Of a stretch of 64,000 nt of DNA, positions 6,746 through 55,245 are shown piece by piece (positions within the stretch are counted from its first letter, which is position 1; every line of letters starts with the position of its first letter). Location of the stretch: the IMG/VR virus record IMGVR_UViG_3300026488_000025, positions 15,664 through 79,663 of that record. One strand, written 5' to 3'. Position numbers and translations under genes: made by a program. The DNA comes from a virus. The notes beneath the pieces were generated by a model. The model searched no databases, had not been told where the DNA came from, and worked only from the letters and a program-made list of their open reading frames with translations.

Positions 6746-7118
6746 TCGGTACTCCTAGTATTGCACTAATTTTTTCTTTGAGGACTTGTGGTGTAAACGG
6801 CTTGACAATGTAGTTATTCACGCCTGCTCGCAAAGCTTCGAGAACGCTCATTTTCCCACCCTCTGTCGTAACCATTACAATAGGTATCTCTTTATTCACT
6901 ACACGAACTTTTTTAACGAATTCTAGTCCATTCATTACGGGCATATTCCAATCTGTGATAATAATATCGAAAGGTTTATCGAATGAAGCTAGTGTATAAG
7001 CTTCAAATGCTTCTTCTCCATTGATTGCTTTCGTGACATCTTTGTACTCTAACCTAGCTAGTGTATTGGCAATAATCCTCAGCATCGTTGTGCTATCATC
7101 TACAATTAGTATTTTCAT
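6738..7118 (-). CDS. cheY: CheY chemotaxis response regulator (probable start 7118)
   Basis: MKILIVDDS, ITDWNMP, VTTEGGK, AGVNNYIVKPFTPQVLKEK, very like Helicobacter/Campylobacter CheY. Confidence 0.9.
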   Translation of the reverse strand: MKILIVDDSTTMLRIIANTLARLEYKDVTKAINGEEAFEAYTLASFDKPFDIIITDWNMPVMNGLEFVKKVRVVNKEIPIVMVTTEGGKMSVLEALRAGVNNYIVKPFTPQVLKEKISAILGVPNE

Positions 7119-7131
7119 ATAAATATTTATA
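7118..7131. promoter_or_regulatory. Palindromic pair of overlapping divergent T4-type late promoters
   Basis: TATAAATATTTATA contains TATAAATA on both strands, between cheY and gp4. Confidence 0.7.
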
Positions 7132-7142
7132 AAGGATTCAGA

Positions 7143-7643
7143 ATGGCATTCAAGAAAAAAACTCTCAAACAAGGTTATTTTACTCCAAAATTCCCAGACA
7201 AATATATTATTACAGAAAAGAGCATCACGAAAGGGAATGGTATTAGGTATATGAGTGGATGGGAAAGAATGTTTTTTGATTTCTGTGACCTGAACCCTAA
7301 TGTACTATCTTGGAATTCTGAAGGTATTCAAATTCCTTATATCTCACCATTAGATAATAGACAGCATACATATTATCCTGATGTGTATCTTGAGGTTAGA
7401 AGAGCTGATGGTTCAGTAGAGAAATCTTTAGTGGAAATTAAACCTAATGCTGAGCGTATGCCCCCTAAGGAACCTAAGAAGAAAACAGAAAAGAGTAAAG
7501 CTAGGTATATGAAACAATGTCAAACATTTTTAGTGAATCAGGCGAAATGGGAACAGGCGGAAAGGTTTTGTAATGATAATGGTATTACTTGGAAGATTAT
7601 GGATGAATACTCTTTGGGTATAAAAAAACAACCAAAGAAATGA
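7143..7643 (+). CDS. gp4: Head completion nuclease
   Basis: P..PDKY, Y.SGWE..F..FCD.NP, WNSE, YYPD, VEIKP, VNQAKW. Confidence 0.9.
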   Translation: MAFKKKTLKQGYFTPKFPDKYIITEKSITKGNGIRYMSGWERMFFDFCDLNPNVLSWNSEGIQIPYISPLDNRQHTYYPDVYLEVRRADGSVEKSLVEIKPNAERMPPKEPKKKTEKSKARYMKQCQTFLVNQAKWEQAERFCNDNGITWKIMDEYSLGIKKQPKK

Positions 7644-10908: not shown

Positions 10909-11226
10909 CTAGTTTAGTTCTATTCTTATTTCGTTTTCATCGTGCTCGATAGTATATTTGTCGTAGACTCCATCAACCAACATAAAGGCACTCTCTGCAT
11001 CTTTAGCTTTAAAAAATACTAAGGTTTTACCTTTCTTAGTCGGTTTCTCTAATTTGATTTTGTAACCAAATTCTCTGATAATCTGAATAGGATTAGCTTC
11101 AGCTTCAATTAAGGTTTCCATCTTAGATTTCGGTGCTTCTTCACTCTGAACCTCTTGTGGTGCTTCTGTTATTGCTATTGCTTCGTTTGTGATTTTTGAT
11201 TCTAATAAATTTCTAAATGGTTTCAT
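10909..11226 (-). CDS. Hypothetical protein, possibly internal head protein
   Basis: MKPFRNLLE N-terminus. Confidence 0.5.
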   Translation of the reverse strand: MKPFRNLLESKITNEAIAITEAPQEVQSEEAPKSKMETLIEAEANPIQIIREFGYKIKLEKPTKKGKTLVFFKAKDAESAFMLVDGVYDKYTIEHDENEIRIELN

Positions 11227-12416
11227 ATATGTACTCCGTTACTGTTTAATATTTTCCTCATATCTGCTGATGATATTTTCTCGAAATTCTTGATATAAGC
11301 TTCTTTGATTTTAATTTTCTCTTCTGCTTCAGTCTGTTTTAATGCTTCACCTAAAGGTCCTGATTTTCTAATAACTGCAGACCTGATTTCAGAATCTACG
11401 GCTATTGTATCGAAAATTTCATTAATTTCTATATCGAATAGACTGTCTAGCATACTAAACATACCTACCATATATCCCTTCTCAGGTGATTCTGGATAGT
11501 GTCTTGCCATTTCTTCAGCTCTATCTATTGTGGCTTCAAGAACATTATTCGATAGAGCTTCACCTTCTACTTCTGCGAACAAGAAAATCAGTAACCACTG
11601 CGATAACGGATTTCTACCTATCATTGTTATTGCTTGTGAGATTGTAGAAATCTTTTTCGTGAATTCTTGTTGGTTATTCACAAATTTCAATATATTATAT
11701 ACTAGCTCTGGTCGTGTTTTAATATACTCTTCGATTTGTGTAGTACTAGCATCTTGTTTCAGTAAGACCATTAGCTGTAGAATAATAACCCGCGTGGCAT
11801 CTTTGATGCTCTTACAAGTCTTAATCTCAGGTTTACCAATATAGTATCCCTGGAAATATTCAAAACCAAAATCTATATATTTTTTGTAGTCTTCTACTGT
11901 CTCAATCTTCTCTGCTAATAGCGTAATACCCATCTTTTTAAATTTAGGTATCAGTTTTACGAGATTTTCTTCGTTTACTGTCTGAATATCTATTTTCAAT
12001 ATGTTCACATACTTCCATAATGGATTAAATTGCTTAAGCATTTCTGAAGAAGCATCAAAATCATCAACGGCTATAATAAAACCTGCTTGTTTTAGTAAAC
12101 GGACTTTCGAAACTACTTCGGGTGTAACATCTATTGTTTCAAGTAGTTCTATAACATATTTGTCATAATCGAGCATATCAAGTATATCGTGCTGTAGCAT
12201 TTCTTCATCCACATTTAAGAAACCTAATCGGTCTTCTAATACATTATCTATGTTTAAATGAGTCAAAAGATTAAATAAGACTTTTGATGTTGCTGCTATA
12301 TTAGACGGAAAATCATCGATGCCCCGAGGATTATCTCGATATAATAATTCATAACCTATTAATTTTCCGTGTAGGTTCTTAATAGGTTGTCGTGCTATAA
12401 AGACATCTGTAGCCAT
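11223..12416 (-). CDS. EAL-HDOD domain protein (YuxH/PdeH-like c-di-GMP phosphodiesterase family); probable start 12416
   Basis: VFIARQPI, GYELLYR, FLNV, AVDDF, KID, LAEKIET, FQGYY, followed by HDOD helices. Confidence 0.85.
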   Translation of the reverse strand: MATDVFIARQPIKNLHGKLIGYELLYRDNPRGIDDFPSNIAATSKVLFNLLTHLNIDNVLEDRLGFLNVDEEMLQHDILDMLDYDKYVIELLETIDVTPEVVSKVRLLKQAGFIIAVDDFDASSEMLKQFNPLWKYVNILKIDIQTVNEENLVKLIPKFKKMGITLLAEKIETVEDYKKYIDFGFEYFQGYYIGKPEIKTCKSIKDATRVIILQLMVLLKQDASTTQIEEYIKTRPELVYNILKFVNNQQEFTKKISTISQAITMIGRNPLSQWLLIFLFAEVEGEALSNNVLEATIDRAEEMARHYPESPEKGYMVGMFSMLDSLFDIEINEIFDTIAVDSEIRSAVIRKSGPLGEALKQTEAEEKIKIKEAYIKNFEKISSADMRKILNSNGVHI

Positions 12417-12441
12417 AGTGACCTCGTTTTGTGAGTATTTA

Positions 12442-13206
12442 TCAAAAAGACAAACCGTTCGGTACAAGGTTTAAAATATCTACATCATCTACCTCTCCCG
12501 AACAATGACCAAATTCCTTGAATGAGCAATAACCACATAAAGGTGAGACTTTTTTAGGATATCTCTCCCCATTCTCACAAGATTTTGTATCGGCATATAA
12601 ATCTTTAATAAGCTGTGTTAAATCTTTTCTGTGGAATGTTTCGTGTCTTTGAGTACCGTGTTCTACATAGATAAAAGCAGTCTGAACCTCGTTGATGTGT
12701 GGATATTCAGTAAATGCCCACACAGCGTATGTTTTCATTTGGTCGTTGGTGAAAAAACGAGTATCAGTACTCTTATCTTTACCTGATTTATAGTCATCGA
12801 TAAAAATCTTATCTCCTTCCCACCAGTGAACATCGATAGCACCACGAATCCAAGAAGTTTTATCCCAATAGTCGCACGATACTAGTTTAGCATCTATGAT
12901 TTTGAAAGCAAACTTTTGTTCGTTGATATAATTTTGTTTAATAATGTTAGCCCATATTGGACCTTCTTTGAATTTATTTACAGATACAAGAGCAAGTGCT
13001 TTCTCTTCTGGTGTAAATATTTTATTCGTTTTGAAATCGGGACGGTCATCGTTGTACTCTAAACATTCGTGAATATATGAACCTTTATATAGAGCTAGAT
13101 TCGGTTCGAATGGAACCTTAACCTTGTCAATGTATTGTAGTTTAAATTTCATCGGACAAGTTCTAAAACTATCTAATCTTGAATGTGAGTATGGTGAGAA
13201 TTTCAT
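12442..13206 (-). CDS. Cas4/RecB-like PD-(D/E)XK nuclease
   Basis: SHSRL..F..CP, GAID, DYKSG, QMKTY, CGYCSF...C (four Fe-S Cys). Confidence 0.8.
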   Translation of the reverse strand: MKFSPYSHSRLDSFRTCPMKFKLQYIDKVKVPFEPNLALYKGSYIHECLEYNDDRPDFKTNKIFTPEEKALALVSVNKFKEGPIWANIIKQNYINEQKFAFKIIDAKLVSCDYWDKTSWIRGAIDVHWWEGDKIFIDDYKSGKDKSTDTRFFTNDQMKTYAVWAFTEYPHINEVQTAFIYVEHGTQRHETFHRKDLTQLIKDLYADTKSCENGERYPKKVSPLCGYCSFKEFGHCSGEVDDVDILNLVPNGLSF

Positions 13207-13423
13207 CTATATTTCCTTCAGTTCTTTTGTTGTTCTATCAAATGAGAAATGTTTATTCTCTGTGTGGATGTGGACTTCTTTTTTTTCGATTTTATAATTT
13301 ACGGGTCTTAATTCTGTTTCAAATCTGAAATATGATAGAATTATTTGTAGTTCATTCTCTGACATAATCTTTCCTTTGTCTCTTTATATGTAATATTATA
13401 ACATAAAGAACCTTAGAGGTTCC

Positions 13424-14095
13424 TTAATCTATTAGATATATTTTATAAGCAACGATATTTCTGTCATACCAATAGAAGCTATTCTTCCAATAAGCATATT
13501 TAAGAATAATTGAGTTTCTTTTGTCGATTTTTACCTCAAACGATGTTTTATAAAGTTCTTCGCTTTCTTGTTTCTCTTTCTCTATCCAATCTACTGAATA
13601 TTTCCAAATAACATTCTTATTTTCATTAATATAACCTCCAAGAACACCATTCTTCATAATTGTTTGCTCGAGAACTCTATCATAACCATAACTAAATCTA
13701 TACTGAATAGCACCTTTTAATATTGTTGGTCTTAATACAATACCACCATTTAGTGATTCTTCATCGTATGATAATTGGTCTACATATAGTTTTTTAACTT
13801 TGCCAAATAATATTACATCTGTATATAAAACATTATAAGGGTCCATTAAGACTGTATAATCTGCTAAATAATCGATGTACTCTGTATTATTTGTTTTAGC
13901 AACATTGTATTCACCTTTAACTTTATGTGTTGTAATTCCTGCTTTGATAGCAGTTTCGAGTTTTAAATTTGTTGATTCTACTTCTGTGTGAGGTGTTGAA
14001 GATGTTGAATACCCACCCTCTCCGAATGTTTTTAAATGTGTTACATCAAATCCTGATAAACTTAATGCTAGTAGCAATATTAGTAATGTTTTCAT
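13424..14095 (-). CDS. Putative outer-membrane beta-barrel protein (probable start 14095)
   Basis: Signal peptide MKTLLILLLALSLSG after GGAG SD; alternating beta-strand pattern; aromatic C-terminal strand. Confidence 0.5.
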   Translation of the reverse strand: MKTLLILLLALSLSGFDVTHLKTFGEGGYSTSSTPHTEVESTNLKLETAIKAGITTHKVKGEYNVAKTNNTEYIDYLADYTVLMDPYNVLYTDVILFGKVKKLYVDQLSYDEESLNGGIVLRPTILKGAIQYRFSYGYDRVLEQTIMKNGVLGGYINENKNVIWKYSVDWIEKEKQESEELYKTSFEVKIDKRNSIILKYAYWKNSFYWYDRNIVAYKIYLID

Positions 14096-14123: not shown

Positions 14124-14357
14124 TTATAAGAATAGGTGTGGTTTGTCTTCTTTGATTTTGACAATTTCTTCATTTGAAATCAAAACAATATTAGCAAGAC
14201 GCAAATCTTTCTCTGTTTTATGTGTCCTATATGAAATTGTAAAGTGAAAATTTTCTTCTAACATAGATACAGCACAAGCATCTTCTTTAGAATGTTTAAG
14301 ATATCCAATATAACCTTCTAAATAAACCCACCCTTCTGGAGCGTTTCGCAACATCAT
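14124..14357 (-). CDS. Small protein with C-terminal KPHLFL tag
   Basis: ORF; shared C-terminus. Confidence 0.65.
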   Translation of the reverse strand: MMLRNAPEGWVYLEGYIGYLKHSKEDACAVSMLEENFHFTISYRTHKTEKDLRLANIVLISNEEIVKIKEDKPHLFL

Positions 14358-14557
14358 AAGAAAGCATCCGGGTATGATTGCATTATCTCTTCGACTGTCT
14401 TCTTATCTACTACTTCGCCTCGACCATAATCAGAAGAGAATCCTGAAATTTTGAAATTTAATATCTGATATGAGTTCTCATTCCGTTTCTTTATGAGAAT
14501 ATCGGGAATTGTTATATTGTGAAATTCTTCTGATATGTCTAATAATTTTGCTGTCAT
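14354..14557 (-). CDS. Small protein ending YPDAFL
   Basis: ORF with SD; tag-like C-terminus. Confidence 0.6.
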   Translation of the reverse strand: MTAKLLDISEEFHNITIPDILIKKRNENSYQILNFKISGFSSDYGRGEVVDKKTVEEIMQSYPDAFL

Positions 14558-14566
14558 AATATTTCC

Positions 14567-14899
14567 TTATAATAATAGGTGAGGTTTGTCTTCATAGATT
14601 TCATTCAGTCTTACTTTCATCGATTCTAATCTCTCTAATGCGTCCACAACGGCTTCGATTTTATTTACTTGTTGTGCCATCTTATCTGTGATTTTCTCCC
14701 AACATTCTTCTTCTGATTTATATATTGCTTGAGTAGTGTATTTTTTGTCATCAGTAACATATACAAATTTCTTGGTTATTCTTATTACCTTTTCTGGAGT
14801 TAATTCACTCCAATCTCTCTCATAATCAACCATCCACAACGGATTTGTTTCAAAATATTCTTTTATTTCGTTTCGTTTCATCTGTGCTAATGGAGTCAT
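14567..14899 (-). CDS. Small protein with C-terminal KPHLLL tag
   Basis: ORF with AAGGA SD. Confidence 0.65.
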   Translation of the reverse strand: MTPLAQMKRNEIKEYFETNPLWMVDYERDWSELTPEKVIRITKKFVYVTDDKKYTTQAIYKSEEECWEKITDKMAQQVNKIEAVVDALERLESMKVRLNEIYEDKPHLLL

Positions 14900-14908
14900 A
14901 ATATTTCC

Positions 14909-15166
14909 TTATAAGAATAAATGAGGTTGATTCATCTGAATAGTTTCAACCTCATCAGTACTAAGAATTTCTATACCCATCTGTGAAATTGAATGAGGTG
15001 AATTACCGCTGTCGTGCCATCTAATCTTGCTTGTTCCTGTCCCGCCGATTATTTCATAATGCAAGTAATTAAGTCTATTTCGTACTACCCTCATAAGTAA
15101 TCTATTAAACATAAAAAATGTACCTACTGGTATGACTCTAATTTCTATATTATATTTCGGTTTCAT
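14909..15166 (-). CDS. Small protein with C-terminal QPHLFL tag
   Basis: ORF coupled to the upstream gene. Confidence 0.65.
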   Translation of the reverse strand: MKPKYNIEIRVIPVGTFFMFNRLLMRVVRNRLNYLHYEIIGGTGTSKIRWHDSGNSPHSISQMGIEILSTDEVETIQMNQPHLFL

Positions 15167-15535: not shown

Positions 15536-16390
15536 TCAACTCTTAACTGCGTACCAACCATCCAATTCTCTATTAGATTGTTTTCTTGCCTTCTTGCTAT
15601 CAATCTTTTTGTTTGTTTGATATGACTTTTTGAGTAGATACATTTCTAAATTATATTCTTCACATTTCTGCACGAAATCTCCGTGGCTTTCAAATATAAG
15701 AACATCATCCTTATTATATACAAATATTTTCAGTGCCATACCATTTTTGTTGCCTGGTAACGAACCTAAAGACTTGTATAAATCTTTATTATTATGATAA
15801 TCTTCTGAAGGCACTCTAGTTTTCACTCCAGTGGATATAATTTCAACTGCTACTGTCCCTTTAGCTACACCCACGAAATTGCCACTATCAAAATCTTCTT
15901 TAGATATGCTTGTAGTTTCTCCGTTTATTGATACAGCTACCATACCTTTAGTATTATGTTCATACTCGCCTGTTGCAAATTCTTCTGAAGACACTCTTAT
16001 ATGACCTTCTTTTGTTTTGACAACTACGCTATTTCTATTGGTATTTGCCGCTTTTATTATATCTTCTTTGGAGAACTTATATTGTAGATTATTTTCATTA
16101 ACATAACCCCAGCCACCTATACCACCAACCTTTAAATTATAGGTATCTTTTCGTTTAATAAATTCTTCTGTTACTATCTCATTTTCTTTAGCATAAGATT
16201 CTTCTTTGGTGTTGTATGCAAATATTTCTACTATTTCAAATTGAGATTTACTGTATTTTCTAATTGAATCTCCTAAATGAGAATCAGAGTTAGCGTGGCC
16301 TTTGAATCTATTCTTTAGCGTATCTTCTGTTACACCTATGTATATTTTACAGTTTAATTTATTCGTAATTTGGTACACTTTATGTTTCAT
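15536..16390 (-). CDS. GIY-YIG (Seg-like) homing endonuclease
   Basis: VYQITNKLNCKIYIG, R..GH, E, YNLKVGG. Confidence 0.85.
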   Translation of the reverse strand: MKHKVYQITNKLNCKIYIGVTEDTLKNRFKGHANSDSHLGDSIRKYSKSQFEIVEIFAYNTKEESYAKENEIVTEEFIKRKDTYNLKVGGIGGWGYVNENNLQYKFSKEDIIKAANTNRNSVVVKTKEGHIRVSSEEFATGEYEHNTKGMVAVSINGETTSISKEDFDSGNFVGVAKGTVAVEIISTGVKTRVPSEDYHNNKDLYKSLGSLPGNKNGMALKIFVYNKDDVLIFESHGDFVQKCEEYNLEMYLLKKSYQTNKKIDSKKARKQSNRELDGWYAVKS

Positions 16391-16441: not shown

Positions 16442-17092
16442 TTAAGAATTGGATTGTTCCATATAGTATTTTGCTAAAGTTGCTTGTGACCATAAAGATT
16501 TACTGTTTTTGATGCAATCCCTAATTCGCCACATTACTGAATTGAATGCTTCTTCATCTGAATCAACACCATACATTCTCGTATCGAAATAAGCATTACC
16601 TACTTTATTATTTTGGATATTTAAAATATAATCAATATCTTCCTGTTCTGTATAAGAAGTAATATTCATTTCATAATATTCATTTGCAATATCACCTAAA
16701 TGTTTATTGAATCTCATTGTAGTGTAACCTGCAATCAATGAACACATTTTTTGAACCCTACCACCATACGAGTGCTCCCATAGAGCTTTGTTAGTGCCTT
16801 TGTGATTCTCTTTAGTCATTAATGATGGAATAATAAGCGTAATCTCATCTGATTGCTGATATACACAAACTGCTTGGTATTCTTTAGCGAGGTCAAGCGA
16901 TGTCAATTCAAAAGCCTTAGATAAAATATCATCAAATGGTTTTTTGAAACCCTTAGTAAACTTAGAAAATTTATGACCATCTATACGAACGATGATATGC
17001 TTTTCTGATTCAATTCTTGTTTCATAATCAGCTTCTAAACCTTTCAGTCTTCCACCTAATGATTCTGTGTTGTTTTTGATACTTTTCTTCAT
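16442..17092 (-). CDS. Thg1-like tRNA-His guanylyltransferase, N-terminal catalytic fragment
   Basis: IVRIDGHKFSKFT, YQQSDEITL, GRVQK, FDTR, WR..DC.KNS. Confidence 0.88.
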   Translation of the reverse strand: MKKSIKNNTESLGGRLKGLEADYETRIESEKHIIVRIDGHKFSKFTKGFKKPFDDILSKAFELTSLDLAKEYQAVCVYQQSDEITLIIPSLMTKENHKGTNKALWEHSYGGRVQKMCSLIAGYTTMRFNKHLGDIANEYYEMNITSYTEQEDIDYILNIQNNKVGNAYFDTRMYGVDSDEEAFNSVMWRIRDCIKNSKSLWSQATLAKYYMEQSNS

Positions 17093-17157
17093 CTTTCTTT
17101 CCTTCTCTCTTTATATGTAATATTATAACATAATGAACCTTAAGGTGTACTGAACCG

Positions 17158-17541: not shown

Positions 17542-17843
17542 TATTCTTCCTCTTTAAAAAATTCTGCGAACATTTTCATAAACTCTTTATTTTCAGTAGG
17601 TGACTTATCATAACCAATAACTTCATTTTCCATACGATAAAGTTTTCTATCAATCTTTGTAACTTCTCTTTGTAGTTCAAATCTTGTATTGTACGGGTCG
17701 TATTTTTTATTGAAACGGCTTAATTCGCCTTGACATTTAGGAATCTTTCTCATTTGTATTATTCTATCGTTACAGACATCTAAATCTTTTTGAATCTCTC
17801 TTTGTGTTTGTACCAAATATTTGTATTCTTGAACTAAATTCAT
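17541..17843 (-). CDS. Hypothetical early protein
   Basis: ORF directly after promoter and SD. Confidence 0.55.
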   Translation of the reverse strand: MNLVQEYKYLVQTQREIQKDLDVCNDRIIQMRKIPKCQGELSRFNKKYDPYNTRFELQREVTKIDRKLYRMENEVIGYDKSPTENKEFMKMFAEFFKEEE

Positions 17844-17898
17844 CTTGTTTCCTTTATCTCTCTTTATATGTAATATTATAACATAAAGAACCTTAAAG
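17837..17898 (-). repeat. Early promoter-SD-ATG cassette, near-identical copy at 18642-18703
   Basis: About 62 nt with one mismatch; TTAAG..TATGTTATAATATTACATATAAAGAGAG..AAAGGAAAC..ATG. Confidence 0.8.
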
Positions 17899-17899
17899 G

Positions 17900-18271
17900 C
17901 TACTGAAAATCTATTGTAGTGTCTGTTATTTGCTTTTTCGTGTTTGTTCTGTCATTTAATGCACTTTGAAATAACCCAATAACATTAACATCAACGAAAT
18001 GGTCATCTGGTATATTGGTAAGGAATTCGCTAAATAGTTCATATAAATTCGTAGGGATATTTTGTTCGTGATATTCTACTCCAATATCATTGTAATAGTT
18101 TTTTATTGAGAGCATTCGTGAATTTCTGTTTAGTGGTTTTCTACTCTTTTTGTAATTCATTGGTACATCTTTCCCGAGGATTTTCATATTATTTTTCCAT
18201 TTCTTAGAATTCATTCCTTCGCAATCTGCACAATCGCACGATGCAGGATAGCTACAGCTTCGATAAATCAT
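17900..18271 (-). CDS. Hypothetical protein
   Basis: ORF with Cys-rich N-terminus. Confidence 0.5.
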   Translation of the reverse strand: MIYRSCSYPASCDCADCEGMNSKKWKNNMKILGKDVPMNYKKSRKPLNRNSRMLSIKNYYNDIGVEYHEQNIPTNLYELFSEFLTNIPDDHFVDVNVIGLFQSALNDRTNTKKQITDTTIDFQ

Positions 18272-18499: not shown

Positions 18500-18708
18500 T
18501 ATCTTCTTCCTTTACTAATAGTTCTATCCATTTTATCTTCTAGCATCATTAACATATTACCAAAATAACTAATCTCATCTGGTGTTGTTGCTAAATCCAA
18601 ATCTTTTTGTGTATCTTTGATTTTCTGTGTTAGTTCGTTGTAATTCATCTTGTTTCCTTTATCTCTCTTTATATGTAATATTATAACATAAAGGACCTTA
18701 AAGCTTTA

Positions 18709-18969
18709 TTAACCTATACAGACATATTCTTTTAAATCGCCTTCCACATAAAAATGATAATCTTCATCAGCAATAATGTCCATATTACCATCAAACCGTT
18801 CTACCGAAATCCAACCATTTGGTACTTTTCTGAATCCATTACCTTCATCATCTTTTGCTGTCACTATTTCTAAATCTTGTGGTAGTTCTTGTAGTAATGC
18901 TATCGTATCTTTTACTGTCATTATATTCCTTATATTACTTATAAAAATAAATGTGGTTTGTTTTCGCAA
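18709..18969 (-). CDS. Hypothetical protein (true start probably MTVKD)
   Basis: MTVKD..LQELPQDLEI...DDEGNG, a common small phage protein pattern. Confidence 0.55.
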   Translation of the reverse strand: MRKQTTFIFISNIRNIMTVKDTIALLQELPQDLEIVTAKDDEGNGFRKVPNGWISVERFDGNMDIIADEDYHFYVEGDLKEYVCIG

Positions 18970-19208
18970 ATATCTTTGTATTGGCTGTTTGCTGTTTTAA
19001 GGGCTGTTCTCCATTTTTTCATTTGAACCTTAAATTTTTCTTTCGTTGTACCTTTGTTCTTAGAGGCTACTTTCTTATTGAGGTATGCAATCCTAAGCTT
19101 TAGACCTTCAAAATCTGCTTCTTCTTTTGTGCTGTACCCTCTAGTTTCCCATTTGGATGTGCTTGTCTTGAATGGGTATTTCCAAGCATCGACAATAAAT
19201 ATTTCCAT
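18939..19208 (-). CDS. Small protein with C-terminal KPHLFL tag
   Basis: ORF; shared C-terminus. Confidence 0.6.
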   Translation of the reverse strand: MEIFIVDAWKYPFKTSTSKWETRGYSTKEEADFEGLKLRIAYLNKKVASKNKGTTKEKFKVQMKKWRTALKTANSQYKDICENKPHLFL

Positions 19209-19968: not shown

Positions 19969-20196
19969 TTAAGAATATATGTTTTGGTTGTATGGTTTAG
20001 GGTTGGATTTAGAGAGTTCGAGGTTCTCTTCGCTCAAGTCTATGATTACTTGGCTGTATTGTAGAAGAAGAGTGGTTAGTAGTTTTACATCATCACCCGT
20101 TGTATTTTCGAAATCGAGTTCATCGAATTCTTCTTTCATACTACCTAAGGTAGCTTTAAGGGTATCAATGAGAGCCCTATTGATAGGGACAATCAT
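19969..20196 (-). CDS. Hypothetical protein
   Basis: Coupled to clpX stop. Confidence 0.45.
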   Translation of the reverse strand: MIVPINRALIDTLKATLGSMKEEFDELDFENTTGDDVKLLTTLLLQYSQVIIDLSEENLELSKSNPKPYNQNIYS

Positions 20197-21446
20197 TATT
20201 CAGATTCCTTCGTTTTGAACTTACCTCTACTGTAATCCACATTAAGTGATTTACCTTTGAATTCGTTGATATTATACATCGTGTCTAGCATAATCGATTC
20301 AAGAATCGTTCTAAGGCCACGAGCTCCTGCCTTTTGTTCAAGTGCCATATCAGCAATTTGGTCGATACTTTTTTTACTGAAACCTAAATCTACATCGTCC
20401 ATTGTGAATAATGTTTTGAACTGTGAAATAATGTTGTTGCTAGGCTCTGTTAAAATTCTAACCATTTCTTTCTTTGTAATCATTTCTAATTCAGTATGGA
20501 TTGGGAAACGACCCATTAGCTCAGGAATCATACCATAAGCAATAAAATCTTCATTCGTTACTGATTCTTTTTGAGTTTTTTTCTTATCATCAAAATTATA
20601 ACCAATAACATCATTGTCCTTTAGTCTTGCTTTAATAACATCATCCATACCATCGTATGCACCAGCACAGATAAACAGAATATTTGTAGTGTCGATTTCT
20701 ACTGTCTTACCTGCATTAGGATTTGATTTGTTTCTATCGATAGGAACCTGAACCTTAGAACCTTCTACTAATTTAAGAAGCTCTTGTTGTACACTAGCAC
20801 CACCGACATCACGACCACGACCACCAGTCTTAGCAATTTTATCTACCTCATCGATGAATACGATACCACGCTCACACGCTGCGATGTCTTCGCCCGAATC
20901 TTGATACAATCTATACAGAATACTAGAAACATCTTCTCCGACATAGCCAGACTGTGTTAATGATGTGCTATCTGTAATAGCCATTGGAACATTTAGTGCC
21001 TTAGCAATCGTTTGTGCAAGTAATGTTTTACCTGAACCAGTGGGCCCAATCATCAAGATATTTGATTTTTGTACATACTCGCCTGTCTTAAGCTTGAGTA
21101 ATCTTTTGTAGTGGTTATATACAGCTACAGCAAGAACTTTTTTGGCTTGATTTTGACCTATAACGGCCTCATCTAATGTATTTTTTACTTCTACTGGAGA
21201 GAATACATCCCAATCGATTAAATCAGTGCTTTCTTCTGGTGTATCAGAAAAAATATCCATATCTTTTGTACCGAGAACATCTGATGCAACAGCTACACAC
21301 GATTTACAAATACTGACATCATCAGCTACGATGATAACATTTTCTTTTGTTTCTTTTTGTTTACAGAAACTACACACTTTTGTTTCGTTCTCTTTGCTTT
21401 CTTTACTCATTAATCTCGTCCTTTTCTTTTCTAATTGATTCACCAT
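20196..21446 (-). CDS. clpX: ClpX-like AAA+ unfoldase
   Basis: CSFC zinc domain, VIGQ, KSNILMIGPTGSGKT, GYVGEDV, IDEVDK, PELMGR, GARGLR. Confidence 0.92.
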   Translation of the reverse strand: MVNQLEKKRTRLMSKESKENETKVCSFCKQKETKENVIIVADDVSICKSCVAVASDVLGTKDMDIFSDTPEESTDLIDWDVFSPVEVKNTLDEAVIGQNQAKKVLAVAVYNHYKRLLKLKTGEYVQKSNILMIGPTGSGKTLLAQTIAKALNVPMAITDSTSLTQSGYVGEDVSSILYRLYQDSGEDIAACERGIVFIDEVDKIAKTGGRGRDVGGASVQQELLKLVEGSKVQVPIDRNKSNPNAGKTVEIDTTNILFICAGAYDGMDDVIKARLKDNDVIGYNFDDKKKTQKESVTNEDFIAYGMIPELMGRFPIHTELEMITKKEMVRILTEPSNNIISQFKTLFTMDDVDLGFSKKSIDQIADMALEQKAGARGLRTILESIMLDTMYNINEFKGKSLNVDYSRGKFKTKESE

Positions 21447-24561: not shown

Positions 24562-24889
24562 ATTGTTGCATTACATAATCCATTTCTGCTTTTGAACGCA
24601 TATAAGATGTAAGATAGCCGTCAATGTTAGATGCTCCTACTGGATTTGCTGAGTGAATATTCCAAGTAAATGTATCAGGAATAAATTCACCTGACATATC
24701 TAAGTCCATTTCAATTAGCCATTTAACAATAACCATCGAAGTGTCATCACCACCTAAATCGTGGTCCCAACTTATAAAATCAGGACAACCGAAACGAGTT
24801 AAGTACTCAATAGTTTCTTCGCTTGAACGAGTAATTTTGTCAAAAGTTCCTTTAGGATTTCTAATATCATCTACATATAACTTTCTCAT
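24542..24889 (-). CDS. Cyclic-phosphate-processing receiver-domain protein
   Basis: LYVDDIRNP, ISWDHDLG, IHSANPVG motifs. Confidence 0.75.
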   Translation of the reverse strand: MRKLYVDDIRNPKGTFDKITRSSEETIEYLTRFGCPDFISWDHDLGGDDTSMVIVKWLIEMDLDMSGEFIPDTFTWNIHSANPVGASNIDGYLTSYMRSKAEMDYVMQQCDEWED

Positions 24890-24949
24890 CTTTCTCTCCT
24901 TTTAATCTTTATATGTAATATTATAACATAACTTAACTTAAAAACTCCT

Positions 24950-25051
24950 TATAAATAAGAGTATAAGAGATACTACATATACTTTCTAACTCTTAGTCGG
25001 GTTCTTAGAAAGTATATGTAGTGTGAACCCGACTAACCTCACACTCTTATA
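24950..25051 (+). promoter_or_regulatory. Late promoter plus structured endonuclease leader, copy 2
   Basis: TATAAATA 24950; 20-bp inverted repeat 24970-24989/25005-25024; 24993-25004 complementary to 25025-25036. Confidence 0.8.
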
Positions 25052-34998: not shown

Positions 34999-36522
34999 TT
35001 AAAGTTTGATTGCTAGAATCTCATCGATTAATGCGTTTGAGTTTTTCCACATCTTCGGAATTACGCTTAACATCTTGTCCGAAAATCCTGAAACTTCCAG
35101 AATGTCATTAGATAATTTCATTGGTGTGTCACCGCCGTATCCTTGAAGATTCCAGAATAGTATCTTAACATTTGGGTTGATTTTTCTATATGCTGTTACT
35201 GCTTGTTTGAATGAACCTAAACTATTTGATTGCATATCTGTTAGGATAACAATTTTATCTACGAATGTTTTCGTTTTCACTAAATCTGCCATACTAGCAT
35301 TAAGATTTGTACCATATCCTTGTGTGTTTGTTCTCTTAATGAAATCGAACGGAGAACCACTGATATCCACTCTACGAGCATTGTCTGCCCATAAGTAACC
35401 TAATGTTTTGGTTTTATCTAATCCCACTAACATACTTGCCATTAAAATCTTACCGATTTTGAATGGGCTCATTTCTGTAGCACTTGAACCCCATCCTGAA
35501 CTACCCATTGAACCTGACTCATCTAGTAACAGTGCTACACTCTCACCTTCATCAACGATTGGGATATTCTTTGCTGAAATAATGAAACCTGCTTCGATAC
35601 CATCTAATAGTTCTTTTTGTAAGATTCTATCGAATGACATTGCTTCTACTGCTTCTGCTGCTTGAATAAATCTGAATGGAAGTACCATAGATTTACGACA
35701 CGCTTTCTCATTTCTGAATAACAATGAAAGTTTTGTAATCATTGCTTGTCTATCTGATTGGTCGAAACCATCAAGAGTTTCTAAGATATTTTTAAGGTTT
35801 TTAAGACCAGCCATATATCCTAGTTTTCCTTCGATTAACATACTGAAATAGTTTTGAGCTCTTGATTCACCAGTTGATTGAGCATTAACTGTTTGAGCAG
35901 TAACGATGTTCTCTAATGTTCCTTCGATTAATCTTTTGAATACATCTGTATCTTTTGCTTTACCTTTTGCTACAAGAGTTTCTGGATTTGGACGAGCAAG
36001 TTTAACGATGTCACGAAGTTTAATCTTACCTGAACCACCTGAATATTTCTTTAATTGATACTCATCAAATTTTGACTCAAATACATCTTTGATTGCTCTA
36101 CGAAGAGAATTTGGAATCATTTTACCTTTATTGCGAGTATTGAATAAAGCAACCATTTCCATAGCATCATCAGGTCTTACAATAGTTTTAGTAAGAGCAC
36201 TTCTTAAATAATCAGTACCTTTAACATTTTCTGCTAAGATAGCACCCATTATATGTGATACAGTTCTAAGATTACCTTCATTACGAACATAAACTGCTGC
36301 TTTTGCTGCGAACTCTGAATCGCCTTCAGCAACCATACCTATAATACGATTGATTCTATCTGATTCTGATTCGTAATATGAATTACCATTTACCATACTT
36401 GATAAGATAACTGAAGCTAACTCTTTACGAGCATCTTCATATTTGTATGCTACACCACCTGCTAAGTTTGTAGTTTCTGCTTTTTTCTCTGTTTGATTGA
36501 TTGTTTCGTTGAATTTTGCCAT
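34999..36522 (-). CDS. Ro60/Rsr-like TROVE + vWA RNA-binding protein (probable start 36522)
   Basis: TTNLAGG.AY, AVYVRNEGNLR, RPDD, FDEYQL.KY, A.LKNL.NI, VLPFRF, LLDESGSM, LTDMQ, GFSDK. Confidence 0.9.
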   Translation of the reverse strand: MAKFNETINQTEKKAETTNLAGGVAYKYEDARKELASVILSSMVNGNSYYESESDRINRIIGMVAEGDSEFAAKAAVYVRNEGNLRTVSHIMGAILAENVKGTDYLRSALTKTIVRPDDAMEMVALFNTRNKGKMIPNSLRRAIKDVFESKFDEYQLKKYSGGSGKIKLRDIVKLARPNPETLVAKGKAKDTDVFKRLIEGTLENIVTAQTVNAQSTGESRAQNYFSMLIEGKLGYMAGLKNLKNILETLDGFDQSDRQAMITKLSLLFRNEKACRKSMVLPFRFIQAAEAVEAMSFDRILQKELLDGIEAGFIISAKNIPIVDEGESVALLLDESGSMGSSGWGSSATEMSPFKIGKILMASMLVGLDKTKTLGYLWADNARRVDISGSPFDFIKRTNTQGYGTNLNASMADLVKTKTFVDKIVILTDMQSNSLGSFKQAVTAYRKINPNVKILFWNLQGYGGDTPMKLSNDILEVSGFSDKMLSVIPKMWKNSNALIDEILAIKL

Positions 36523-36603
36523 TGTGTTCTTTCCTTTGTTTAATTCTCTTACGAGATAATGTTGAAGTGTCCTCACTTCACCTTGTGTGTTCTTTTAGTA
36601 ATA

Positions 36604-39324: not shown

Positions 39325-39633
39325 TTATAAGAAAATATGTGGATACCCTTCTGTTATTCTATCCACTATTTCCTGTGTTTTTTCGTTCTCTTCTATGAAA
39401 TGCATTGAACCATCAAGAAAAGTGAGAACGAATGCCTGTTCTGCTTCTAGCTTCGTTTCAAATAAATCCTCACGGACGACTCGTATATCAGCAAATTGTT
39501 CCTGACCAATGTACTGCTTGAATCGAATCACATTCCCTCTGATATGCTCTACCTCTATCTCTTTGGGGTATTCTACCAGCATAGTAGAATTGCTGTACCA
39601 GTAGTTTTTTCCTTTCTGAATATGTTCTATCAT
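39325..39633 (-). CDS. Small protein with C-terminal YPHIFL tag
   Basis: Shared C-terminus. Confidence 0.6.
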   Translation of the reverse strand: MIEHIQKGKNYWYSNSTMLVEYPKEIEVEHIRGNVIRFKQYIGQEQFADIRVVREDLFETKLEAEQAFVLTFLDGSMHFIEENEKTQEIVDRITEGYPHIFL

Positions 39634-49345: not shown

Positions 49346-51322
49346 CTATTTATACTTGTAATGAAAAGTAATAGTTTGACCTTCAGTAGGTATTTGGTAC
49401 ATAATAACTGCTAAATGTTCTTTATCTAAATTATAATCTTCGCCTTCAGTTAATCTCATACCTGCATTATAAACTGCTAGTCCTTCGAATGTATCAAAAT
49501 CCACATAGAAAATGTTTTTCTCACCATCACCTAGCATTAGTTGAACATAACTAGTGTACTCTGATGCTAAGACTGATAATTCCACAAATCTCTTATAAGC
49601 TACTTTTATAATAGACCCATCGTATGATTCTGTAGCAAGTTTGATTGTAGGTGGGTTAGCTGGTTTAAGATACACTTTTTCTACAACATCATCATTTGCA
49701 CAAGGAGAATCTACACTAAAACCATTACATTCTATCGTGTAATCTGAATTCTCTCTTTGGAATAAACCACCATCATAAACTTGAATATTTACTACATCAC
49801 CATATTTTAATGTAAATTCTGTATTTACACCATCACTAATGAAAACTTCTTGCTCAGCTCTGTATTCGGAATCTACTATTATAAAACAATATCTAATAGT
49901 AAAATACTCACCATCTAAAGGCATTGTAAGAAATATTATTGTATCGTTTTCTATAATATAATCATTACCATATTCTAATAAGAAACCTGAACCATATATT
50001 TCAACATCGAAAATTTCTTTGTGGTCTAATGCCAAAAAGTTAGTCGCACCATCACCATTCCAATTAATGCTAAGACATTTGATTAACTGCTTACTACCAG
50101 TCCCACCTGCTCCTACCCCAGCACCAGCACTTCCACCAGTCCCACCGTCATCAGTACCCAAAGACCAGTCTAAGGTTCTTCTAAGGTCTACACTAAACAT
50201 CATAAAGAAATCTGATTGATTGTCTTCAGGTTCAATATCTTGTGGATTAATAGTATAAGCATATCTATTATACATAAACAGAACGGGGTCGCCGTGTGCA
50301 TCTGTTTTTGTCACTAATGTCTGATTATAAGGAGCAAAAATAAGTCCTGCATCACCATCATAATCAGATTTAAAACCAACGATTACTGTGTCTTCATCAG
50401 CACCATAATCTTGATAGATTTTTACTGTTCCTATTCTACCTAAATAAATTTCATCTTTATTTGTATTATAATGTGTTAATTGTGGTATCAAAGCATCAGC
50501 GATACCAGGTGAAACGATAGCATATCCTCTATTAGGTTTATGTGTTTTATTACATATATCAGTAATACATCGTGTTATTCTAAATGCTATGTGCTGGAAT
50601 TTTTCAAAAGTGTTACCTTCAATATTTCTTATAACAAGGTCATCGATAGGTCTAGCTACTGTCTTTAAGTAAGCTATAAGCTCTCTATCCATTTCAGCTC
50701 TAATCTGTGAAGCCATCATATCAGAAATCACATTTTCAAAACCTTTATTATGTATTTTCTTTATATCTTGTATAACCTCAAGTGATGTCTTTGCTTTAAT
50801 CTTATTTGTTTTAGCTTCGAGTGAATGTTGGTTAAATTTTAGGTTGATATTATTGTATTTTTCAGTAGATGTATATCCTTCTAGGACTCTTCGTGTGAAA
50901 GCCTTAGATGAGTAAACTGCTTTGATTCTTTTACCATCAATATTTTCAAGAGGAATGAAATCGCTGAACTGGCTTAATAATTTTACAACTATTAATTTTT
51001 CATTCATATATAAGATAGTCCCTTCCCCATTTTTGTTTCCTCTGACTAAATCTCCTACTTCATATCCTTTCCCAGCTAGTTCTTCAACCATTAGTGTTTT
51101 AGTTTCATCATAAAGAGAATCTTCTGCACCAGTCAAATATGATTCAATACTATTCACTATTCCCGTAGGTTTTTCTAAGGGTTGGACATTACTGATATGG
51201 TAAAAAAGTGTGTTAGGGTAAGTTTCGTGCGTGATAGGTTTTAGAATTGATTCAACATCTGCTAAATTATTTTCTTGTAGTGAGTTGTATTCTATGATTG
51301 CTTTGAAGTCTTCTATTTTCAT
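49346..51322 (-). CDS. gp23/gp24-like capsid protein fused to C-terminal beta-rich repeats
   Basis: VQPLEKPTG, E.DRE.I, IVSP, DAGLIFAPY, RYAY..NP; Gly linker; three (G/S)DG..N.F repeats. Confidence 0.7.
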   Translation of the reverse strand: MKIEDFKAIIEYNSLQENNLADVESILKPITHETYPNTLFYHISNVQPLEKPTGIVNSIESYLTGAEDSLYDETKTLMVEELAGKGYEVGDLVRGNKNGEGTILYMNEKLIVVKLLSQFSDFIPLENIDGKRIKAVYSSKAFTRRVLEGYTSTEKYNNINLKFNQHSLEAKTNKIKAKTSLEVIQDIKKIHNKGFENVISDMMASQIRAEMDRELIAYLKTVARPIDDLVIRNIEGNTFEKFQHIAFRITRCITDICNKTHKPNRGYAIVSPGIADALIPQLTHYNTNKDEIYLGRIGTVKIYQDYGADEDTVIVGFKSDYDGDAGLIFAPYNQTLVTKTDAHGDPVLFMYNRYAYTINPQDIEPEDNQSDFFMMFSVDLRRTLDWSLGTDDGGTGGSAGAGVGAGGTGSKQLIKCLSINWNGDGATNFLALDHKEIFDVEIYGSGFLLEYGNDYIIENDTIIFLTMPLDGEYFTIRYCFIIVDSEYRAEQEVFISDGVNTEFTLKYGDVVNIQVYDGGLFQRENSDYTIECNGFSVDSPCANDDVVEKVYLKPANPPTIKLATESYDGSIIKVAYKRFVELSVLASEYTSYVQLMLGDGEKNIFYVDFDTFEGLAVYNAGMRLTEGEDYNLDKEHLAVIMYQIPTEGQTITFHYKYK

Positions 51323-51528: not shown

Positions 51529-51855
51529 TTATAAAAGTAGGTGAGGCATATTTTCTTTCACAAGATAAAAAGAAGGACGAGGAATAAAAATCTCGTAATC
51601 AAATATATATGCTTCATCCATTTCAAAAGTTTTAGTATTAGAAAAGAATTGGAAAATTAATTCTTTTCCTTCAAGTAGTGCTCTGACGCCTTCATCTATA
51701 TAATTATAATCTGACCATTCATAATCATCATCATCATATCCGTATTCATATTCTTCATTAGAATTATATAGCTCATTATCGCAAGTAATCATAAATGGAG
51801 AAAGTTTTTGGATATGTTTTGTGTTTAAGAATAAATTGTCTGTTTTGAAATTCAT
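51529..51855 (-). CDS. Small protein with C-terminal MPHLLL tag
   Basis: Shared C-terminus. Confidence 0.55.
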   Translation of the reverse strand: MNFKTDNLFLNTKHIQKLSPFMITCDNELYNSNEEYEYGYDDDDYEWSDYNYIDEGVRALLEGKELIFQFFSNTKTFEMDEAYIFDYEIFIPRPSFYLVKENMPHLLL

Positions 51856-53115: not shown

Positions 53116-55245
53116 TTACAGTAAATCGTTCCTCTCTTCTACCATCAGTACAAGCGACTCAAATAATTCTTCAGAACTTTTTTCCATCTTTTGTAGCGTT
53201 TCTTCTATACCAGGGTTGAATTTGTCTTTCATTCGCAAATTTATTGCCTCTTGTGCCTTCTCGTGGACATTTTGGTGGAACTTATTGATACCAGAAAAAT
53301 ATCTTGATTTACCGTACATTGTCTTACCTTCACCCAAGAACCATTTACCAAATCGGCAATCCGTGTGTTTGGACATAGTTTTATTTTCTGCTCCAAGGAT
53401 GGCATCATAAGCGTTTATTTTAAATATAAGATGCTCTATTTTTGTTAGAGAAACGATAATATCCTCAGAAATAACATTATTTCTTGCTGTATTATTGTTA
53501 TTCAGATTGCTTAGAACACTGATACGGTCATTAAGGTCTTCTGATACCGATGAAGCCTCACCAATAGATTTCATCATATTTTCTGTGCTTTCGTTCATTT
53601 CCGATGTATTTTGTTTAACCACATTAATACTAGCTTCTACATTTTTTGTAGCAGTCTGTGTTCTTTCTGCTAGTTTTCTTACCTCATCAGCAACAACAGC
53701 AAATCCTCTACCGTGTTCCCCTGCTCTTGCTGCTTCAATCGCTGCATTAAGTGCTAGTAAATTCGTTTGTTCTGAAATATCTTTAATAAGCTCAATAACG
53801 CTTGATATTTCATTTACTGATTCCTCTAGCTGCTGTGCAGATTCGGCTGTTCCTGTCATACCCTCTGATAATACCTGCAATGTATCTACCATCGTGTCTT
53901 TTGACGCAGTTAAAGAAGTAAAATCGTGTACTGCCTCTGTATTAAAATCATTTATTGTAGAAAGCTTAACCGTACTTTTTGAGAGAGCTTCTTTAATATC
54001 AGAAAGGTTATTAGTAGCTCCACCTGCCATTAAAGAATTTATACTAAGATTTAGTTCATTATCTTTTTGACCTAGTGCTAAATCTTTAGCTCTTTCTCTG
54101 ATTTCTTCATCTGATTTTGTTCTTTGTGTATCGGCTTCATTTAATGATGAGAATAAATTATTTATGCTTTGTTCTATTTCAGAAACCTCATCGGTACCAG
54201 TAACTACAATACTATTATTAAAATTATTAGAATCCTCTAAAATATTTTTCATACCCTCTATTCTAGTGATAAGGTTATTAGCAAATTTGAAACCTAGAAA
54301 AGACATCACTAGAGCAAATATTAGAGCTATTCCCATTTTTGTGAGCATCATCGTTAATAAATGTGATTTTTCTATGGCTGCATCTTTTTGGAGCACTTCA
54401 CCTAGAGTGATTTCTAATTCTCTAAGAGCATCAATCTTTCTCGTTATCGTCCTAAACCATTCACCTGGATTTGAGTCTAATGCAGTACCAGGCCCTCTTG
54501 CTAACAACATATTTCTCGTTCTCTCTACCTTGATATACTCTGGTGATATTTTGATGGAATCGAGAAGCTTTGTAGTCTCTGGTGTAGCTAGAGAACCGAA
54601 TTCTTTCAGGAATTTATTCTGCTCTGACACTAATACCACAAATTTTGAGAATGACTCTGTGCTGAATTGATTTTTTGTTAATGAACCCGTTACAACAGCT
54701 CTTTCTTTTCCTGCTAGTTCTTTTGAAGAGCTTAGATAACCTATCACGCTCATCTTTTTAATCGTTTCTGTATCTTTAGCTATGAATTTCGATAAGTTGA
54801 TAGCATCCAAATAAGTCCTATTCATAGTGCTAAAATATTGGACAACATCTTTCACTTCAATACTAAGGTTGTCTATACTGTTTCTTTTGTATGATATGTT
54901 ACTGTAAGACTGTAATGCTTTAGAGAATATCATCTTGCTGTCTTTATTAGGGAAATCAATATCTTTTACATCGTTGTAAGAAGAATCTACTTTGCTCCTA
55001 ATGTCTCGTATCTCTGACCTAAAATTTTTACCTTTTGAGCCTACGAAACCTGCAGAAGCACCTCTTTCTTGTTGTAGAAAATGTACGAGTTTGTTGATTT
55101 TGTTGTTTTCTGTGATTGTTTTTTCTAGTGTGGATATTGCTGTATAATCTCTGTATTCAGAAAATGTAAGGTAACTAAAACCTAATATAACAATAATTAC
55201 TGGTAGGACGGTGAGGGTTCTAAGTTTTGATGATATGTTTTTCAT
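53116..55245 (-). CDS. Methyl-accepting chemotaxis protein with NIT-like sensor and CZB domain
   Basis: Two TMs; LVH.LQQERG.S and KE.AGKERA (NIT); [37 protein letters not shown]; [15 protein letters not shown] (CZB). Confidence 0.92.

Follow-up and report, generated by a model that had tools for sequence, protein, structure and literature searches.

A portable C-terminal tail on unrelated phage proteins and its genomic link to a MoxR/DUF2201 module

A C-terminal tail shared by nine phage proteins

We examined a 64 kb stretch of viral DNA (hereafter the window, meaning the whole stretch analysed; positions 15,664 to 79,663 of the IMG/VR virus record IMGVR_UViG_3300026488_000025). The record, labelled G000, is 79,663 bases long with a CheckV completeness of ~33%, and derives from a distant T4-like phage with a guanine-plus-cytosine (GC) content of 33%. 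Nine open reading frames (ORFs) of this record, seven in the window and two just outside it, close with a PHLFL-type tail. The tail is strictly C-terminal, selected at the protein level and modular, and it is genomically linked to a module made up of a MoxR-type AAA+ ATPase and a DUF2201 protein. The best explanation of these endings is a portable C-terminal short linear motif of ~10-13 residues, in which the end of an amphipathic helix is followed by [KY]-P-[H/D]-hydrophobic-hydrophobic-L-COOH.

The initial annotation had pointed to seven minus-strand ORFs with such endings, and all seven are present. They encode proteins of 77 residues (ending ...IKEDKPHLFL; 14124-14357), 67 residues (...IMQSYPDAFL, an Asp variant whose stop codon overlaps the start of the next gene as ATGA; 14354-14557), 110 residues (...IYEDKPHLLL; 14567-14899), 85 residues (...IQMNQPHLFL; 14909-15166), 89 residues (a basic protein, ...ICENKPHLFL; 18939-19208), 102 residues (...ITEGYPHIFL; 39325-39633) and 108 residues (an acidic protein, ...VKENMPHLLL; 51529-51855). 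The 108-residue ORF lies directly upstream of the gp23 major capsid gene, while the 102-residue ORF sits in the co-directional run 3' of that gene, the genes between them being without annotation. To the left of the window, the same record encodes on the minus strand a 240-residue carrier ending ...YIKECYPHLAL (L001:5939-6661) and a 124-residue carrier ending ...ADRWPDLVL (L001:7534-7908). T4-late-promoter-like TATAAATA boxes, of which the minus strand of the record holds 26, overlap the stop codons of the 77- and 102-residue ORFs (boxes at 14128 and 39329, minus strand), and two of the window tail genes have the identical spacer TAAGGAAATATTATG. A scan for sigma-70-type promoters showed no enrichment (38 found, 42.5 expected).

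Across 118 crude gene calls (24,048 residues), the motif P[HD][LIA][FLAV]L occurs nine times at a C-terminus and never internally. With an expected C-terminal count of 0.0012 (Poisson P ~1e-32), a chance origin of the shared endings is excluded. The conserved unit is longer than the PHLFL-type ending first described and reaches position -13, reading hydrophobic(-13)-x-x-[IVW](-10)-x-E(-8)-[DNG]-[KYQMW]-P(-5)-[HD]-[LIA]-[FLAV]-L(-1). The glutamate at -8 is present in six of the nine tails, as is [IV]-x-E at -10 to -8. After removal of the last 10 residues, all-against-all BLASTP in the nine-sequence database gave a best E-value of 0.065, and with the tails kept, alignment was confined to the last 10-21 residues. 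Homology along the whole length of the carriers was not seen, and by this comparison their bodies are unrelated, as the initial annotation had held.

Codons -6 to -1 carry a mean of 1.34 bits of information at their first and second positions compared with 0.68 bits at the third, and synonymous codons are used freely (CCT, CCA and CCG; CAT and CAC; TTA, CTA and TTG). As the first two codon positions are conserved while the wobble position is free, selection acts on the peptide, in agreement with the earlier reading of the codon variation. An AlphaFold2 single-sequence model of the 110-residue carrier was used for the helix boundary only (mean predicted local distance difference test score, pLDDT, 58.5, low confidence), and places a helix at residues 63-104 that ends just before K-P, with block-mean pLDDT of 71-83 over residues 71-100.

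The carriers themselves are obscure. None of the nine has a Pfam or PHROG match, a phmmer comparison with eleven phage proteomes found no tail-bearing homologue, and ESM Atlas searches gave scores that were all below 0.8. A homologue search with the 240-residue carrier returned only the same protein, on a contig of 331,651 bases. Scanning IMG/VR for E-[DN]-K-P-H-L-F-L-stop gave one chance match, inside another gene, and scanning metagenome contigs for [DN]-K-P-H-L-F-L-stop gave at least 119 single, unclustered matches.

The wider tail family

The initial annotation missed that the PHLFL-type ending belongs, as a local dialect, to a phage tail of far wider distribution, ...[YH]-P-E-hydrophobic-F-I-COOH. 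In its fuller form, hydrophobic-K-x-x-[YH]-P-E-hydrophobic-F-I-COOH, this tail closes 8-30% of ORFs in some T4-like and N4-like phages, and the records compared suggest a tag present in many marine phages that ends up to 30% of their proteins. The nearest portal relatives of the window carry the PE form: among IMG/VR relatives with portal identities of 39-44%, [LIMY]-K-x-x-[YFH]-P-E-[YFLV]-[FY]-[IV]-COOH ends several unrelated ORFs, and a carrier of 55-74 residues lies just upstream of the portal gene. The T4-like G004 has eight PE-tail ORFs in 26 kb.

Further tail-rich records were found by a degenerate DNA scan. The N4-like G006 (103.5 kb, with terminal repeats and a CheckV completeness of 100%), whose terminase is 71% identical to that of Alteromonas phage AD45-P1, bears tails on 51 of its 173 ORFs. 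A second N4-like genome, G010, has 15 tails, and G007 and G009, which were not typed, have 22 (strict motif) and 14, respectively. The cultured T4-like Vibrio phage Va1 bears tails on 79 of 343 ORFs; P-E stands at -5/-4 in these 79, against 0-2 ORFs at any other offset tested.

The PH and PE tails share preferences for hydrophobic residues at -13 and -10, K(-9), E/K(-8), Y/H/K(-6), P(-5) and hydrophobic residues at -3 to -1. They differ at two positions: where the PE form has Glu(-4) and Ile(-1), the PH form has His or Asp and Leu, respectively. In G000, G006 and Va1 alike, codon position 3 carries far less information than positions 1 and 2, and across the tails of these three genomes all four proline codons and both glutamate codons are used. 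Conservation ends abruptly ~13 residues from the C-terminus.

The proteins that bear the tail are diverse. With tails removed, the 51 carriers of G006 fall into 48 BLAST clusters, including a few recent paralogue pairs, and across genomes the carriers range from 42 to 379 residues and include Pfam domains as different as DUF285/BspA leucine-rich repeats (LRR), DUF7448, a ProQ_C-like domain, a Pol-beta nucleotidyltransferase and a DnaJ-type zinc finger. Since the bodies and folds of the carriers are unrelated, the tag is modular. A DNA_pol_B match among the carriers was set aside as probably a chance match to the search expression, arising from a mid-polymerase fragment of G007 that ends PEYRI. 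Scanning cellular genomes for K-Y-P-E-[YF]-F-I-stop gave 42 mostly single matches, about the chance level, and the tail is therefore no obvious mimic of a common host motif. We found no published description of the tail in the literature searched.

A conserved protein of 288-379 residues without a Pfam match bears the tail in T4-like and N4-like phages alike (Va1, MK387337.2, 29648-30787; G010, 72627-73493; AD45-P1, 80683-81576). It adjoins the MoxR gene in Va1 and G010, is one of only three tail carriers in AD45-P1, and may be an ancestral client. A second recurrent ending, ...[LM]-x-K-L-Y-K-D, closes three ORFs of one portal relative (L006, L008), and an LLYKD ending on one ORF of G004 (6828-7346) resembles it; these ORFs may be paralogues or may carry another tag.

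The MoxR/DUF2201 pair as candidate reader

Few gene families are common to the T4-like and N4-like carriers, and two of these encode the MoxR-type AAA+ ATPase and a DUF2201_N/DUF2201 protein. The latter comprises an N-terminal zincin domain with an HExxH...H motif and a C-terminal vWA domain. In an alignment of 89 family members, both HExxH...H and the metal-ion-dependent adhesion site (MIDAS) motif DxSxS...T...D are invariant. Both genes are found in all six tail-rich genomes that we examined in full (Va1, G006, G007, G009, G010 and G045, a contig described below), and with G017 and G025 included, DUF2201 is present in eight of eight tail-rich genomes with a completeness of 37% or more. Tails are borne by three to five of the six nearest neighbours of the DUF2201 gene in each of five genomes (combined p ~0.001), and the gene directly 3' of MoxR bears one in four of five. 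Tails lie within 10 kb at 21 of 32 IMG/VR loci with close DUF2201 homologues and at none of 48 loci with distant homologues. The tail is thus genomically linked to the MoxR/DUF2201 module.

The contig G045 (146.5 kb, GC 0.330) was recovered only via its DUF2201 gene, when DUF2201 loci were scanned for the PH dialect. It carries 18 PH/PD tails, and PH-tail genes are interspersed with its MoxR and DUF2201 genes. G045 and G000 seem to represent separate portions of a single phage lineage: only one protein is common to both, their GC contents are nearly equal (0.330 and 0.329), they have a repeat family in common, and their T4-like gene sets are complementary. G045 supplies terminase, sheath, tube, baseplate, ribonucleotide reductase and clamp loader, while G000 supplies portal, capsid, protease, gp32, RNase H and primase. 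Beside the DUF2201 gene of G045, the tail variants ...FPGWFI and ...NPHSIL (123207-123506 and 125573-125890) show further drift at -4 and -2.

The best evidence for a common lineage is the intergenic repeats, a family of 44-99 bp elements with 85-97% identity between the two contigs. Copies of ~45-100 bp lie in the window at 13368-13427, 17085-17142, 17839-17915, 18643-18713 and 24882-24955, elsewhere in the same record at L001:1522-1591 and L001:3186-3257, and on G045 at, among many others, 92278-92335, 98759-98833 and 109981-110050. They immediately precede genes on the minus strand and may act as promoters or regulatory cassettes.

We infer that a tag on so many unrelated accessory proteins would serve as a common address or docking label, and that one common reader probably exists. 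The initial annotation had likewise proposed a docking tag or degron; a portable C-terminal tag with common docking is the most economical account of the data, while the partners it named, ClpX and a clamp, fit poorly, as set out below. The likeliest reader would be the phage-encoded MoxR ATPase together with the DUF2201 zincin-vWA protein and its intact MIDAS, an assignment that we make tentatively. MoxR-class ATPases work with vWA adaptors on client tails, CbbQO and NorQD being examples. Extended peptides bind to vWA MIDAS sites through an acidic residue (PMC7159879). In the phages described here, the residue at -4, invariably a metal ligand (E, H or D), would dock together with the hydrophobic free C-terminus on the vWA/zincin protein, after which the ATPase would remodel the client, or the zincin trim it, such that the accessory proteins are handled together as one group. 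Taken as a whole, the proposal that the tag is read by one partner, with the MoxR/DUF2201 pair as its leading candidate, stands in our judgement at an even balance. More doubtful, though possible, is the wider proposal that at least two unrelated morphotypes encode their own protein-sorting or processing system, in which MoxR and the zincin-vWA protein recognise a C-terminal tag on 8-30% of proteins and the P-E...I and P-H...L dialects define private client sets.

Several points weigh against the MoxR/DUF2201 pair as reader. Both genes are absent from the 79.7 kb, 33%-complete record of the window itself, and the window is tied to the module through the probable placement of G045 in the same lineage. 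Some genomes have the module but scarcely any tails, as in AD45-P1 (three), G001 (none) and G035 (~0), which shows that its presence alone does not bring tails. Phage phylogeny confounds both the co-occurrence and the adjacency, as does the position of both gene types in accessory or early regions, and a host-encoded reader would equally explain a tail common to unrelated phage types. Histidine, the residue at -4 in the PH dialect, is a poor ligand for a Mg-MIDAS site. Covariation around the MIDAS was considered as support and rejected: the G045 DUF2201 protein has P344A and G365L beside MIDAS residues, and two of nine unusual substitutions is the chance level among conserved positions.

A complex prediction for G006 DUF2201 with Mg, Zn and a 36-residue tail peptide, made with alignments of 89 rows (DUF2201) and 94 rows (tail peptide), gave an interaction prediction score from aligned errors (ipSAE) of 0.00 in both runs and was weighed neither way. 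The window does encode one vWA-type protein, a TROVE/Ro-like protein (34999-36576, minus strand) with a DxSxS MIDAS-type motif at residue 352 and 52% identity to a Va1 protein.

Large phages carry small accessory genes, most of them without a known function or a handle for study. A tag on a tenth to a third of phage proteins would mean collective management of these orphan genes, be it by docking, processing, timing or delivery, and would provide a single experimental handle on them in the form of a peptide pull-down. The cultured phage Va1, with ~79 tagged proteins, makes the system testable now, and the change from Glu to His and from Ile to Leu in the lineage of the window is a natural swap of specificity by which the reader could be found through covariation or tail swap. 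Should the MoxR/vWA-zincin pair prove to be the reader, the module, which many N4-like and other phages encode, would gain its first assigned function. Among the contributions of this analysis are the N4-like carriers, the evidence against the phage ClpX and the clamp as general readers, statistics on the linkage of tails to DUF2201 and MoxR, and a second contig with the PH dialect.

Alternative explanations and known systems

The T4-type genes of the window include Portal_T4, Gp23 and the S77 prohead protease, and G000 also has gp32, RNase H and primase genes. The gp23 homologue (49346-51322, minus strand, 658 residues) has only ~25% identity to any cultured phage; the Pfam Gp23 model spans its residues 23-378 only, leaving ~280 C-terminal residues unexplained. 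Among the unusual cargo, in addition to the TROVE/Ro protein, are domain matches to a ClpX with a zinc-finger N-domain (20196-21446, minus strand) and to two host-like signalling genes, an EAL-HDOD protein (11223-12467, minus strand) and a NIT-MCPsignal-CZB chemoreceptor (53116-55245, minus strand). Profile search of the record found neither PF02916 nor PF09116, the profiles used for a gp45-type clamp.

A host reader, a host protease included, is a serious alternative to the MoxR/DUF2201 pair. The tail could be a degron or tether for an AAA+ protease, be it host ClpXP, ClpAP, Lon or FtsH or, in this lineage, the phage ClpX with the ClpP encoded on G045 (143251-143892, minus strand). The tail would then set when accessory proteins are removed, or enable LRR-type carriers to serve as adaptors. 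A hydrophobic free C-terminus on many small proteins suits such a role, the tail's occurrence in unrelated phage types fits a conserved host machine, and the sole lineage with its own ClpX also has its own tail dialect; if the window ClpX and the G045 ClpP belong to one genome, the phage would encode a complete ClpXP. However, a phage ClpX, the first partner named in the initial annotation, was not found in the complete G006, nor in G004, G007, G009, G010 or Va1, and 80 ClpX-bearing phage loci hold a single tail in 1.2 Mb, which argues against it as a general reader. Va1 ClpP was matched in G008 only among the ten other genomes compared, with G045 as a further holder of ClpP, and known nonpolar degrons at C-termini are less specific than the invariant P-E/H. 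On balance we consider the protease explanation unlikely.

Less probable again is the absence of any reader. All carriers would then descend from a single ancient family of paralogues that has diverged quickly, or the tail would by itself form a structural cap or an oligomerisation element. In keeping with this, small proteins in tandem arrays predominate among the carriers, the few paralogue pairs of G006 are recent, and a helix plus tail could belong to a fold. Against this, clearly unrelated Pfam folds occur among the carriers, their sizes vary widely, conservation stops abruptly, and the motif is never internal.

We also considered the tail as a capsid-targeting signal, removed by a T4-type prohead protease at [IV]-x-E, seven residues from the end, such that the carriers would be loaded into the head for injection. 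The frequency of [IV]-x-E in the G000 tails and the positions of carriers around the capsid gene (one directly upstream, another downstream, on the same strand), and just upstream of the portal gene in relatives, would suit this explanation. Yet the tail is abundant in N4-like phages without a T4 portal-family match (no search for a prohead protease was made in these), G006 shows no conservation of E(-8), T4 places its own capsid-targeting sequence at the N-terminus, and 50-80 packaged species per virion are implausible, making this explanation very unlikely.

A sliding-clamp-binding peptide for T4 gp45 or host DnaN, comparable with the tails of T4 gp43, gp33 and gp55, is at least as improbable. 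The tail is short, hydrophobic and C-terminal with an L-F core, and T4-like carriers encode a gp45-like clamp (G004, and by annotation Va1). But neither a gp45-like clamp nor a T4 portal was found in the N4-like G006 with its 51 tails, which speaks against the initial suggestion of gp45 as a general reader. The C-terminal piece of the Va1 polymerase aligns to RB69 residues 549-889 of 896 yet ends ...RETESLDDW, a test that rests on Va1, the window's own polymerase lying off the fragment. The G004 RNase H-like exonuclease ends LAWDW, and 50-80 clients per genome are implausible for a clamp. Finally, a DNA- or RNA-level signal at gene ends (a promoter, ribosome-binding context or recombination site) translated by chance is effectively refuted by the codon-position information: despite the tight packing of the genes and the boxes and spacer noted above, conservation has a three-base periodicity with free wobble and all synonymous codons in use, the stop codons vary, the downstream bases are uninformative, and the last gene of a co-directional block also bears the tail.

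Among known systems, the MoxR AAA+/vWA pairs (CbbQO with Rubisco, NorQ with NorD, RavA with ViaA, and the midasin MIDAS with its UBL) offer the closest parallel to the MoxR/DUF2201 pair, in that genes for the MoxR ATPase and for a MIDAS-intact vWA protein stand beside those of the putative clients in tail-rich genomes and the client motif has an obligatory metal-ligand residue, hydrophobic flanks and a free C-terminus. The phages differ in having 9 to ~80 unrelated clients per genome in place of one, in carrying the module also where tails are lacking, and in the histidine that replaces the acidic residue in the PH dialect; binding, threading and cleavage are here only putative. The fusion of a zincin to the vWA domain may be compared with MoxR-vWA conflict systems that have peptide-processing zincins (PMC7159879).

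The ssrA degron of ClpX and the SspB tether to the ClpX zinc-binding domain likewise route diverse proteins to one AAA+ machine through a C-terminal peptide with a free carboxylate, and a ClpX is encoded in the window, but the phage tail has no sequence likeness to LAA or LRVVK and a phage ClpX is missing from most tail-rich genomes. The T4 capsid-targeting sequence of IPI-III and Alt is also a short common peptide on unrelated small proteins, with a possible [IL]-x-E site nearby, although it lies at the opposite terminus and the tag described here extends to N4-like podoviruses. The clamp-binding tails of T4 gp43, gp33 and gp55 are short hydrophobic extreme C-termini on unrelated proteins of a T4-like phage, whereas the tag described here also occurs in phages without a gp45-type clamp and the Va1 polymerase tail, SLDDW, is of another kind.

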